A DNA stretch of 29,621 nucleotides from a candidate division WOR-3 bacterium (GCA_965649115.1 CBFGJN010000019.1:1-29621); one strand, 5' to 3'. Positions 120 to 8,419 are shown, numbered from the stretch's first letter. Notes: generated by a model from the letters alone, not told the origin. Numbers and translations: made by a program.

Positions 120-884
120 TTAAAAAAATTTTTCTAAAATTTCTATCTTATCAACTACTTTTTCAAGATTAATATCTTGATTATTATACTTATTTAAAAT
201 AAAACCAGAAAAATTTAAATTTAGACTTTCAAGAAATGATTTCAAATTTAAGGATAAATCTATTATTAATTTGTTTGGATTTATAACGATATAGTAATTA
301 GCACTTCTAAAAAATTCTTCAACTTCAAGAGCAATTATTTCTTTTTCTTTTAGTTTTTCATAACTTTTAAGTTTTCTACTTGCCCAATTTTCGGAAATAT
401 TTTTCCAATTTTCATAAATTTTTAAAATAATTTCTAAATTTTTTCTTAAATTGAAAAGCGTTTTCAAAAACGAAATAAATTGATAAGATGGTGGTGTATC
501 TATTATAAAAACTTCAAAATTTTTTGGAATTTTATAAATTCCATATATTATAGCAGTATTTACCGCGATACTTGAATCTAAAATAAATTTTGAATATTTT
601 TCAAATTCTTCAAAAGCTCTTTTACTTAAAAATTCACTTATATTTTCTTTAATATCATTTATATAGTTTTTTGAAATTGATTTTGCATCAACTTCAATAG
701 TGTATAAATTTTCCTTAATTTCAGTTATACTATTGCCTATGTTTTTATTGAAAATTAATGAAAGGGAATGGTCTTGATCTATTGAAATTAATAGAATTTT
801 TTTAATTTTTGATAATTTTTCAGCATATATTTTAGAGACAGTGCTTTTACCAACTCCACCTTTACCACAAAAAACAATTTTCAT
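120..884 (-). CDS. ArsA/GET3-family (SIMIBI) ATPase, single domain, divergent
   Basis: Deviant Walker A GKGGVGKST; ISIDQDHSL resembling ArsA STDPAHSL; IIDTPPS resembling DTAPTG. Confidence 0.75.
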   Translation of the reverse strand: MKIVFCGKGGVGKSTVSKIYAEKLSKIKKILLISIDQDHSLSLIFNKNIGNSITEIKENLYTIEVDAKSISKNYINDIKENISEFLSKRAFEEFEKYSKFILDSSIAVNTAIIYGIYKIPKNFEVFIIDTPPSYQFISFLKTLFNLRKNLEIILKIYENWKNISENWASRKLKSYEKLKEKEIIALEVEEFFRSANYYIVINPNKLIIDLSLNLKSFLESLNLNFSGFILNKYNNQDINLEKVVDKIEILEKFF

Positions 885-1264
885 TCTTTAAAATTTATTT
901 CTATTGGTAAATTTCTGGATTTCCAATCTTCAAAACTTCCCTTATAATGTTTTACATTATATCCAAGAGCTTTTAAAATTTGATAAGCTTTTTGTGAGAG
1001 AATACCTTTCTGGCAATAAACAACAATAGTATCATCCTTTGAGATTTTAATTCTACCACTTTTTATTTCATCTCTTAATCTATCTAAGGGGATATTATAT
1101 TTCGTATTTGGTATATGTCCTTTATTAAATTCTTCGTTATTTCTAACATCAATTAAAATAATTTTTGGATTGTTTTCATTTTTTAAAATATAATTTGCAT
1201 CAACAATGTCTTGACTTTCCGAACAACCAATTAATATAATAAAAAATAAAATTCTTTTTAGCAC
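881..1264 (-). CDS. Rhodanese-domain lipoprotein
   Basis: Lipobox LIGC; LIDVR..EEFNKGHIP; active-site loop VYCQKGILS; GSFEDW. GTG start. Confidence 0.85.
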   Translation of the reverse strand: MLKRILFFIILIGCSESQDIVDANYILKNENNPKIILIDVRNNEEFNKGHIPNTKYNIPLDRLRDEIKSGRIKISKDDTIVVYCQKGILSQKAYQILKALGYNVKHYKGSFEDWKSRNLPIEINFKE

Positions 1265-1271
1265 TGATGAA

Positions 1272-1277
1272 ATTTTA
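1272..1277 (-). promoter_or_regulatory. Putative -10 box TAAAAT, 7 nt before the rhodanese GTG
   Basis: Minus strand reads GTCCTT-TAAAAT-TTCATCA-GTG; same motif and spacing recur at many genes. Confidence 0.65.
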
Positions 1278-1283
1278 AAGGAC

Positions 1284-1337
1284 TACTTTGTCCAAAATAT
1301 GAGCATTTACAAGCCAAAGGCTTAATTGGACAAAACA
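1284..1337 (+). mobile_element. MITE-like copy 1 of tandem array (54 bp, heavily deleted)
   Basis: TACTTTGTCC...AAGCCAAAGGCTT...GGACAAAACA, followed by AATAATAGA. Confidence 0.75.
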
Positions 1338-1346
1338 AATAATAGA

Positions 1347-1488
1347 TGCTTTGTCCAGTAAATAACTTATGAAAAATTTTCTGACCCAAGGCATAAAAAT
1401 GGGGTATTTATAAAGCTCCGCCTTATTTCATAGTGTGGGTGGGAAAAGTAAAGAAATAATGATATTTTCAGAATTACTGGACAAAGCA
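1347..1488 (+). mobile_element. MITE-like copy 2 of tandem array (142 bp)
   Basis: TGCTTTGTCCAGTAA...AATTACTGGACAAAGCA, followed by AATAATATA. Confidence 0.85.
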
Positions 1489-1497
1489 AATAATATA

Positions 1498-1674
1498 TGC
1501 TTTGTCTAATAATTATTGCTAAGCGATTGATAATCAATTACTTATAAAATTTTCAAGAAAATTATTGATTTTTAGGGGGGTTTTTGGGGGCTCCGCCCCC
1601 CAAAGCAAAAAATGGGTATTTTAAAGCCGAAGGCTTTTGAAAAATAAATAATTCCAGAATTTTTGGACACAGCA
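1498..1674 (+). mobile_element. MITE-like copy 3 of tandem array (177 bp)
   Basis: TGCTTTGTCT...GGACACAGCA, both hairpins present, flanked on both sides by AATAATATA. Confidence 0.85.
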
Positions 1675-1683
1675 AATAATATA

Positions 1684-1888
1684 TGCTTTGTCCAGTAATT
1701 ATTGTCAATCACCTGATAATCAATAACTTATAAAATTTTTAGGGAAATTATTGATTTTATGGGGGGATTAAGGGGGGCGTTAGCCCCCCATAACCGAAAA
1801 ATGGGTATTTATAAGGCGAAGCCTTATTCATAGGGTGGGTGGAGAAAATATAGAAATAATCATATTTTTAGAATTACTAGACAAAACA
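1684..1888 (+). mobile_element. MITE-like copy 4 of tandem array (205 bp, full length)
   Basis: TGCTTTGTCCAGTAATT...AATTACTAGACAAAACA with a perfect 9-bp flanking direct repeat AATAATATA (1675-1683 and 1889-1897). Confidence 0.9.
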
Positions 1889-1910
1889 AATAATATAAAA
1901 ATTTGTGCTT

Positions 1911-1916
1911 TAAAAT
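1911..1916 (+). promoter_or_regulatory. Putative -10 box TAAAAT of the lipoprotein operon
   Basis: TGCTT-TAAAAT-TTTC, followed by a short leader with GGAGG before ATG 1942. Confidence 0.65.
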
Positions 1917-1941
1917 TTTCATACTAACGGAGGTAAAAAGT

Positions 1942-2262
1942 ATGAGAAAGTTAATAACAACAACCGTGATGATGCTTTCAATGTTGGGTTGCCAACAGAT
2001 AAAGCCTGAGGAGATAACGAAACCCCTAAATGATAAGATATCTGCTATTGAAGAAAAGATAAAGAATATAGAATCTTGGATAGATGAACAGAAAAAAGCT
2101 GCTGAAAATGCTCCAAAGACTACTGAGGAAATGTCAAAAGCTATTGCTGAATTGAAAAAATCGGTTGAACAATTGAAAAGTGAGCTTTCAAATATAAGTG
2201 GTAGATTATCAAAAGTTGAACAAGCTCAAAAGGTAATGAGTACACCTGGAAAGCAAAAATAA
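1942..2262 (+). CDS. Small coiled-coil lipoprotein
   Basis: Start moved to ATG 1942 (GGAGG upstream); MRK + hydrophobic stretch + MLGC lipobox; heptad-rich remainder. Confidence 0.75.
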   Translation: MRKLITTTVMMLSMLGCQQIKPEEITKPLNDKISAIEEKIKNIESWIDEQKKAAENAPKTTEEMSKAIAELKKSVEQLKSELSNISGRLSKVEQAQKVMSTPGKQK

Positions 2263-2275
2263 AGGAGGAAAGAAT

Positions 2276-3070
2276 ATGAGAAAATTATATATAACCTTAA
2301 CCGCTCTTTCGCTTTTGATATGGGCATGTTCAAAGGAAGATACAACTCCGCCATCTGCTCCACAAAATCTAACAGGAACAGCAGTAAATAATGGTCAAGA
2401 TTTAAAGCTTACTTGGGATGCACCGATAGAGGGAAAACCTAGTAGCTATGATGTTTTATGCGATGGAACAACCGTTGCCTCCGGACTCCCTGATACAACT
2501 ACTACATATACAATTAATGGTGCTCAAAATGTTTGTAAGCAGGTTCAGGTTGTTGCGGTTAGTGGTTCAGGTCAAAGTGCGGCAACACTAGATCTTACAC
2601 CTGCTCAAAGTACTGTTAAACTTTACCGTTCTGATGTTGCTAGCCAACCATCTTGGGCAAAAGTGGTTTTCGGGGCAAATGTTAGTGTAAGTGCTATTTT
2701 TACAAATCAAGTTGATTGTTCAGCAGCAAACACTGGGTATTTTATTTATGCAGTGCCTAATACTTTGAAAGATGTGAGTGCTACACAAAATCCAGGATGC
2801 CAGGCTAAGTACGAGTTTGCCTTCTCACAAGCAGCGACAGGAAATTTAGCTCCTTCTGCTGGAAATTATAATACGGCGAGAGATATATCTGATGGTGCTA
2901 CTTACTTCTATTGGGCTGATAATACAAGTGTAGGATATGGTCAAATTGATGCTAATGATTACTTTGGAAAAGTTGTTGTTTCACTTGGCTCAGATAATAA
3001 TGGTGCTTTTGCTAATCTAACTATATATACTCAAAATAAAGTTCCTGGTCTTCGCTGGGTAAAACAATAA
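2276..3070 (+). CDS. Lipoprotein with N-terminal fibronectin type III-like domain
   Basis: AGGAGG SD; lipobox IWAC; DTTPPSAPQNL..LTWDAP..SYDV FN3 pattern. Confidence 0.75.
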   Translation: MRKLYITLTALSLLIWACSKEDTTPPSAPQNLTGTAVNNGQDLKLTWDAPIEGKPSSYDVLCDGTTVASGLPDTTTTYTINGAQNVCKQVQVVAVSGSGQSAATLDLTPAQSTVKLYRSDVASQPSWAKVVFGANVSVSAIFTNQVDCSAANTGYFIYAVPNTLKDVSATQNPGCQAKYEFAFSQAATGNLAPSAGNYNTARDISDGATYFYWADNTSVGYGQIDANDYFGKVVVSLGSDNNGAFANLTIYTQNKVPGLRWVKQ

Positions 3071-5959: not shown

Positions 5960-5994
5960 AAAATAAATAAAACTTATCCTTTAAAATTTAAACC

Positions 5995-8219: not shown

Positions 8220-8382
8220 TGCTTTGTCCAATAATTATTGTTAAATCCTTGATTATCAATAACTTATAAAAGCTTTGAGGAAATTATAGATTTAAACGGG
8301 TATTTATAAGCCGAAGGCTTTTATTTAGGGCGGGTGGGAAAATAAAGAAAAATAAATAATTCTAGAATTTTTGGACAAAGCA
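8220..8382 (+). mobile_element. MITE-like element (163 bp) with 8-bp target duplication
   Basis: Perfect TGCTTTGTCCAA/TTGGACAAAGCA ends; AAAATGGG at 8212-8219 and 8383-8390; first hairpin deleted. Confidence 0.92.
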
Positions 8383-8419
8383 AAAATGGGTATTTATTTG
8401 CTTTAAAATTTTCAAACTT

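Follow-up and report, generated by a model that had tools for sequence, protein, structure and literature searches.

Several mobile elements choose their sites by a landmark of the host. TnGBS elements insert 15-17 bp upstream of sigmaA promoters (PMC3942029), and the IS1202-family elements ISAjo2, ISAba71 and ISAba32 lie 5 bp from XerC-binding dif/pdif sites in one orientation, the same site having been taken on independent occasions (PMC10132070). Duplications of 9 bp accompany all 9 of the 9 IS903-group elements, 1050-1054 bp long, in the table rows available to us (PMC3281130), and likewise ISAba12 and MITEAba12, whose terminal repeat is GGCTTTGTTGCACAAA (PMC6382973, Table 2); MITEAba12 is a short non-coding derivative that is moved in trans and occupies varied AT-rich sites (PMC6382973). 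Integrative elements form head-to-tail arrays by repeated integration at a regenerated attachment site (PMC5704250, PMC13651849).

The array described here lies in a window of 29,621 nucleotides, a whole contig of the genome of a candidate division WOR-3 bacterium, and consists of four units of a miniature element (MITE) in front of a putative promoter. With the ISAba12/MITEAba12 pair it has in common the 9-bp duplication, which is also the duplication length of the IS903 group (PMC3281130, PMC6382973), and GCTTTGT at positions 2-8 of the terminal repeat TGCTTTGTCCAGTAAT; the element end matches the ISAba12 repeat at 9 of 16 positions (PMC6382973). The element here differs from MITEAba12 in its fixed offset from a promoter motif, its one orientation and its stacks, and the word 'tandem' is absent from the paper on MITEAba12 (PMC6382973). 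Like TnGBS and the Mutator-like DDE insertion sequences, the element keeps a constant small spacing in front of promoters, which here separates it from a -10-like motif by 19 or 11 nt; however, TnGBS elements have a transposase of another superfamily and are large and autonomous rather than MITEs. The match in promoter offset shows a similar way of working, not membership. In PMC3942029, 'tandem' occurs in the reference list only and 'MITE' is absent. The IS1202-family elements resemble ours in their fixed distance from a protein-binding site, their one orientation and the repeated use of a site, but they have an XerC/XerD target, a 5-bp duplication and the form of autonomous 1.5-kb insertion sequences, and 'tandem' is again absent from the paper (PMC10132070). 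Integrative elements are kilobases long and depend on site-specific recombinases, whereas here cutting and duplication of a DDE type would rebuild the site (PMC5704250, PMC13651849). Our literature search found no paper on MITE stacks at promoters, and no MITE family combining an IS903-like duplication, a promoter offset exact to a single base and stacking.

The array and its element family

The original prediction described four head-to-tail copies, each followed by a 9-mer, and reading of the sequence confirmed them to the base at 1284-1897. The features of the region are as follows; the units and 9-mers were read from the sequence.

881-1264, minus strand: rhodanese-domain gene, left neighbour of the stack (ORF; Pfam PF00581, E 9e-21)
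1270-1280, minus strand: putative promoter motif of the rhodanese gene, reading CTTTAAAATTT on the minus strand, with C before it
1284-1337, plus strand: U1, 54-bp MITE remnant, the most distal unit, with degenerate ends (TACTTTGTCC ... TTGGACAAAACA)
1338-1346, no strand: 9-mer AATAATAGA, the sole spacer with a mismatch
1347-1488, plus strand: U2, 142 bp
1489-1497, no strand: 9-mer AATAATATA after U2
1498-1674, plus strand: U3, 177 bp
1675-1683, no strand: 9-mer AATAATATA after U3
1684-1888, plus strand: U4, full-length 205-bp unit, nearest the promoter
1889-1897, no strand: target 9-mer AATAATATA, promoter-side copy
1898-1907, no strand: 10-nt linker from target 9-mer to motif, which sets the element end 19 nt from the motif
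1908-1918, plus strand: putative promoter motif CTTTAAAATTT of the downstream gene, with -10-like TAAAAT at 1911-1916
1929-1933, plus strand: GGAGG, between the motif and the ATG at 1942
1942-2262, plus strand: small coiled-coil gene served by this putative promoter (ORF; no Pfam family above cut-off)
2276-3070: fibronectin type III protein gene, next after the coiled-coil gene

All four units have one internal orientation (direct repeats; nhmmer strand +). They start with TGCTTTGTCC, except for TACTTTGTCC in U1 and TGCTTTGTCT in U3, and end in variants of GGACAAAGCA; their terminal inverted repeats make every junction palindromic. U1 retains the central hairpin module, and only model columns 111-146 align in it. 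The copies had been said to differ internally, in their hairpins too, and pairwise identity is indeed 77% for U3 vs U4, 82% for U2 vs U4 and 71% for U2 vs U3, while the small hairpin reads GCCGAAGGC in U3 (1626-1634), as in a unit of the related genome G002, and GGCGAAGCC in U4 (1813-1821), a stem pair swapped among copies. The two statements about the distal end also held: AATAATAGA, the most distal 9-mer, is the sole mutated one, differing at one base from the three identical copies of AATAATATA, and the leftmost flank lacks the 9-mer, since the 9 nt left of U1, TTAAAGGAC, agree with it at 2 of 9 positions. The motif of the rhodanese gene at 1270-1280 lies 3 nt from U1 and 5 nt before the GTG start of that gene.

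The array contains a single ORF (1367-1537, minus strand, 56 aa), which crosses a unit boundary. No Rfam match was found in 1100-2100 at E up to 1, the terminator scan gave no terminator-like site in the array, and a sigma-70-type promoter scan gave 4 sites vs a shuffle mean of 5.7, no excess. The product of the gene at 1942-2262 appears to begin with a lipoprotein-like signal, as read from MRKLITTTVMMLSMLGC.

In the genome, which has 1,848,020 bases in 99 contigs at 27.6% G+C, an nhmmer profile made from U4 gave 726 matches covering 97,029 of the 1,848,020 bases (5.3%), and the four units used as blastn queries gave 1761 matches. The element is about 205 bp long, with terminal inverted repeats (TGCTTTGTCCAGTAAT / ATTACTGGACAAAGCA; its ends are also given as TGCTTTGTCC...GGACAAAGCA); 119 of the 230 both-ended chained matches measure 200-206 bp, 322 units are delimited by both ends, and the end core, at up to 2 mismatches, occurs 968 times vs 143 in the shuffled genome. 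Matching flanking 9-mers (0 or 1 mismatch) border 63 of 223 single units vs 1 of 5000 random 9-mer pairs. Where units abut, a spacer of variable sequence separates them, 9 nt long at 87 junctions and 8 nt at 9, the end cores being 11 nt (87) or 10 nt (9) apart, since a terminal A and a terminal T enclose the 9 or 8 variable nt; within the range of 0 to 60 nt, every other spacing was seen twice at most. Junctions consisting of an element end, 9 nt and an element start number 141 genome-wide vs 0 in the shuffled genome, well in excess of chance, and the orientation is the same throughout in 41 of 47 arrays. With terminal inverted repeats, a duplication of fixed length and variable sequence, small size, many copies and no coding capacity, the units belong to a non-coding MITE with a 9-bp target duplication.

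The flanks of single units fall into a bimodal distribution, in which 63 of 223 match and the unmatched ones look random rather than slightly decayed, suggesting frequent exchange of flanks through recombination between copies. Furthermore, a MITE match covers or adjoins 83 of 198 contig ends. The window itself has MITE copies at both contig ends (1-116 and 29501-29617), and the repeats therefore break the assembly. Another copy in the window (8220-8382), 18 nt ahead of the motif that precedes a tRNA gene, was inserted into what is left of a further copy and has the duplication AAAATGGG(T). The gene at G000:C23:581-1460, which an LDAGCGVG motif suggests to be of the class I SAM-methyltransferase type, has paralogues at C21:8973-9695 and C46:10370-10783, one of the three copies having an internal stop codon. 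The C23 gene is located between a 24-nt fragment of a MITE left end and a MITE right end, which may reflect capture of cargo or just neighbouring insertions. A scan for the junction pattern in contigs beyond this genome gave 4 loci only, in Paenibacillus and Xenorhabdus; these were rejected as related stacks, being single palindromic matches that probably arose by chance.

The four units are independent insertions

The head-to-tail orientation shared by the units and the three identical 9-mers would also be expected if one unit with its 9-mer had been duplicated locally in tandem and the copies had then diverged. However, the units are only as alike as random members of the family: identities between array mates of 71-82% occupy ranks 12 to 283 of about 320, which is ordinary, and genome-wide the median identity of adjacent units is 76.4% (40 pairs) vs 76.6% for all pairs. 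U2, U3 and U4 each have closer relatives on other contigs. The nearest relative of U4, C7:11380-11584, is 98% identical over 203 columns; those of U3 are 90-92% identical, the closest at 92% over 163 columns; and that of U2 is 85% identical over 130 columns. U3 is without model columns 145-169, a subfamily deletion common to 13 of 323 units and hence present at 12 other loci. Of the two internal deletions of U2, columns 15-38 are missing in U2 only, and columns 63-103 are missing in 1 other unit as well.

The original prediction had proposed a tree of the copies as its check, expecting that array units would not be each other's nearest relatives, and this is what was found. The nearest relative was an array mate for 0 of 91 stacked units genome-wide. 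In a FastTree phylogeny of 213 of 323 units, chosen because they fill 130 or more of the 205 model columns, U2, U3 and U4 fell into separate starred, well-supported clades, and in an IQ-TREE quick tree of 52 rows (U2-U4, the seven nearest relatives of each and 30 random units) the placement of U2-U4 in one clade lowered the log-likelihood by 50 and was rejected by the AU test (p-AU 0.0197). U1 was too short and was left out of the trees. Identities, nearest relatives, trees and AU test thus refute local tandem duplication, to which we give almost no credence, and show that the four units are independent insertions.

Offset from the promoter motif and build-up of the stack

The motif CTTTAAAATTT, at up to 1 mismatch, occurs 2185 times in the genome vs 474 times in the shuffled genome. 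The distance from motif start to the start of a same-strand ORF is 10-20 nt in 391 instances and 20-30 nt in 80, and the motif is also present ahead of tRNA genes, as at 8391-8401 of the window, where a further instance was noted at 5978-5988. From its position alone, we infer that CTTTAAAATTT functions as a promoter, a -10-like element followed by very short leaders. It is probably the chief promoter element used by this bacterium, and the 391 instances so close to an ORF start imply leaders that are very short or absent. In three congeners, G001, G003 and G004, the orthologue of the gene downstream of the array has the motif with no MITE upstream, so the motif belongs to the host and not to the element.

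The last 9-mer of the array ends 10 nt before CTTTAAAATTT. Across the 2185 motif instances, the element 3' end is found 19 nt before the motif in 145 cases, 18 nt in 45, 20 nt in 6 and 17 nt in 4, giving 196 of 2185 at 18-20 nt, in support of the promoter-defined site that had been predicted for this locus. In a second register, the 3' end lies at 11 nt (31), 12 nt (16), 10 nt (9) or 13 nt (5), which makes 61 instances at 10-13 nt. Both registers together account for 257 motif instances with an element upstream, in one orientation, and 1909 instances are without an element end nearby; no preferred offset from the motif was seen for the element 5' end. Matching duplications were present in 45 of 79 cases at offset 19, 13 of 23 at offset 11 and 17 of 31 at 11-12. 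Offset and orientation are thus fixed across the family, at a short distance upstream of promoters. The registers of 19 nt (145) and 11-12 nt (47) are a step of 7-8 nt apart, and copies 98% identical occur in different registers, U4 at 19 and its C7 twin at 12; the latter, C7:11380-11584, is promoter-proximal in its surroundings and has a perfect 9-bp duplication, GAATTAAAT.

The compactness of the genome, in which crude ORF calls cover 87% of the sequence so that most positions would be harmful, raises the question of survivorship: insertion might be random in AT-rich DNA, with only the harmless copies upstream of promoters persisting. Selection of this kind cannot give a register of a single base (145 at 19 nt vs 6 at 20 and 4 at 17), nor can it give one orientation, and we regard survivorship as very unlikely.

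Stacks at offsets 18-20 consist of one unit at 139 sites, two at 44, three at 12 and four at 1, this last being the array in the window, the tallest in that register; in the other register, heights of one to four units occur at 40, 18, 2 and 1 sites. Within the array, the promoter-side 9-mer and the two nearest spacers are identical and the most distal spacer is off by one base. The 9-mer is therefore re-used within the stack, standing between the units and beside the promoter as foreseen for a target re-duplicated at each insertion, and the identity of the promoter-side spacers is the pattern expected for build-up in place. In six other stacks, too, all 9-mers are within one mismatch of the promoter-side copy.

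Considering these results, we think it likely that four copies of a non-autonomous DDE transposon, each inserted independently and anchored to the promoter, make up the stack, and propose the following scenario for its growth. The transposase would cut a 9-bp target whose end is separated by 10 nt from the host motif CTTTAAAATTT downstream of it, with the 3' end of the element always toward the promoter. A 9-bp staggered cut would leave one 9-mer, the 10-nt linker and the motif intact on the promoter side. Because the 9-mer and everything downstream stay intact, the recognised site would be rebuilt at each insertion and could be hit again, each new copy re-duplicating the 9-mer and displacing the earlier copies away from the promoter. 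Recognition may be of the motif as DNA or of some protein that occupies it.

Insertion sequences of the IS30 or IS911 type are targeted to inverted repeats, and by analogy new copies here might be drawn to the 9 nt beside the end of a resident copy, the promoter being irrelevant. We initially favoured this explanation: the 141 exact 9-nt junctions vs 0 in the shuffled genome accord with it, about half of the units have the end of another unit 9 nt before their 5' end, and the motif in the 11-nt register is often TG CTTTAAAATTT, which resembles the element start TGCTTTGTCC. However, 139 of the 196 sites at 18-20 nt hold one unit, so no resident copy is needed to set the offset; at least 96 of the 141 junctions are in stacks that end at the motif; and the motif follows the units at the 3' end of stacks (57 of 93) and single units (76 of 152) equally often. 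Orthologous promoters were, moreover, occupied independently in two species, as set out below. On the motif offsets and single-unit sites, attraction by resident ends was set aside, and we now consider it unlikely.

Composites of the element do exist, and a stack might have arrived ready-made, moved whole on its outermost ends. A dimer with the inner spacer AGAGTTAG(T) is found at two loci, G000:C1:59266-59683 with the duplication ATTTTTTTG and G000:C3:37424-37815 with the duplication TAATTTTTT; since it has its own 9-bp duplication at each, dimers can move as a composite. A composite would carry the spacers of its donor site, though, and the inner spacers of the array equal the 9-mer on the promoter side, which makes arrival of the whole stack highly improbable. 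At another locus (G000:C15, near 20644 on the plus strand or 17191 in minus-strand coordinates), a three-unit stack of 147, 304 and 204 bp appears, from the motifs at both of its ends, to stand between two diverging promoters.

The scenario of repeated insertion beside the promoter also bears on G002, the closest genome compared (the genes on the left are 85% identical over 1139 nt). The orthologous promoter there has a stack of its own at the same 19-nt offset, made up of a 181-bp unit, AAAATTTTA, a 204-bp unit preceded directly by a 34-bp end fragment, AAAATTTTA, 10 nt and the motif. The two copies of AAAATTTTA are identical and differ from AATAATATA at 3 of 9 positions, and orthology of the G002 units with U3 or U4 is unsupported, their ranks being 45-179 among 237-271 copies. 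With different 9-mers and units that show no specific relationship, the stacks must have arisen at this one promoter separately in each lineage, after their divergence. This supports a hot spot; as the two stacks share no distal units, the comparison bears on the hot spot and not on the order of arrival. In G002, the upstream neighbour is a different gene; the rhodanese gene has another location, where it and a further gene face each other promoter to promoter, no MITE intervening. This break in gene order between the genome studied (G000) and G002 identifies the distal edge of the stack as a point of rearrangement, in keeping with the missing left 9-mer of U1 and with the exchange of flanks by recombination.

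Among public samples, the shortness of the Logan contigs from X4, X5, X6 and X7 and the abundance of the repeat meant that none spanned the array; no allele without a unit was seen among these short contigs, which do not address the order of arrival. The joints listed there have short sides of 21-36 nt, and other copies are their probable source. Contigs from X4, X5 and X7, starting at 964, 1270 and 1307, show 0 differences from the array as far as 1537, just inside U3, the X7 contig beginning inside U1, and one X4 contig links U4 to the gene (1861-2139).

Order of arrival and the moving transposase

The original prediction viewed the array as a chronological stack with length and integrity rising toward the promoter. 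In the window, the rise in length holds (54, 142, 177 and 205 bp), although the shortness of U3 is due to its subfamily deletion. As a rule for the family it fails: stacks with the longer unit next to the promoter number 22, and those in which the second unit is longer likewise 22 (17 vs 20 in another count), and length was thus discarded as a marker of age.

The direction of growth was assessed over all same-orientation arrays of the genome. In 28 of them vs 8, apart from 1 tie, the unit on the promoter side had the closer relative elsewhere (p 0.0012). Cleaner data sets gave polarity tests of borderline significance (p about 0.05): the result was 19 vs 8 (p 0.052) when both units were 130-215 bp long, and 17 vs 8 (p 0.11) when 120 shared columns were required. 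Flanking 9-mers matched in 74 of 149, 15 of 47, 4 of 9 and 0 of 2 units by rank from the promoter, so that even in the first rank only half match, and within stacks they matched for the proximal unit only in 16 and for the second unit only in 6 (p 0.052). That the newest copy is the one nearest the promoter is therefore moderately supported.

In the window, the terminal branches measure 0.11-0.15 for U2, 0.008-0.012 for U4 and 0 for U3. Because U2 has a long branch and private deletions and U1 is a remnant, while U3 and U4 have short branches, U1 and U2 are taken to be older than U3 and U4; the terminal branch of U3 being 0, U3 and U4 cannot be ordered. The chronological stack thus has moderate support as to its direction, with U1 and U2 before U3 and U4 as the part resolved at this locus. 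The comparison with CRISPR that accompanied it holds as an analogy and no further, the sole likeness being the idea of additions at one end beside a fixed landmark. Here the 9-mer is constant and the inserted element variable, and the array has no cas genes, spacer acquisition or immunity function.

In their ends and duplication length, the elements look as if they were moved by an IS5/IS903-like transposase; ends of the type GGCTTTGT are presumably the IS903-group repeat. In this genome, searched as an assembly that is 94.5% complete, the profiles PF01609, PF00872, PF13737, PF13586, PF05598, PF13359, NF033580 and NF033581 gave 0 matches. A DDE_Tnp_1-type transposase of an IS5/IS903-group parent (PF01609, NF033580, NF033581) was accordingly not found, nor was a Mutator-like one (PF00872), and a search of 5 genomes of the genus with PF01609 gave 0 matches in each. 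Among 127 pairs of ends 800-2000 bp apart, none had the matching duplication of an autonomous partner, and DDE_Tnp_1 loci of related genera had no ends like those of the MITE. A screen of multi-copy ORFs for the transposase found the methyltransferase-like gene instead. With an assembly 94.5% complete and 83 of 198 contig ends at MITE matches, the autonomous partner may be unassembled.

A further reading, possible though in our judgement slightly doubtful, would make each promoter a strictly ordered ledger of transposition, in which an IS903-like transposase reads the promoter, as a DNA motif or as bound RNA polymerase, and inserts the element 19 (sometimes 11) nt upstream, one way round, with the newest copy nearest the promoter. 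If so, the enzyme would represent a second, unrelated family of promoter-homing DDE transposases, and the stacks would record successive waves of MITE subfamilies and could be used as relative clocks and strain barcodes; a strict order of arrival would, in the same way, give a relative time-scale for waves of transposons and a basis for strain typing. Transposon targeting that is precise to a single base is rare, and is useful both for understanding the choice of targets and as a source of tools. In this small genome of a thermophile, a MITE family that makes up 5.3% of the sequence keeps one offset and one orientation per register at 257 motif instances, its copies stack because the site is regenerated by each insertion, and the family marks candidate promoters in an uncultured lineage.
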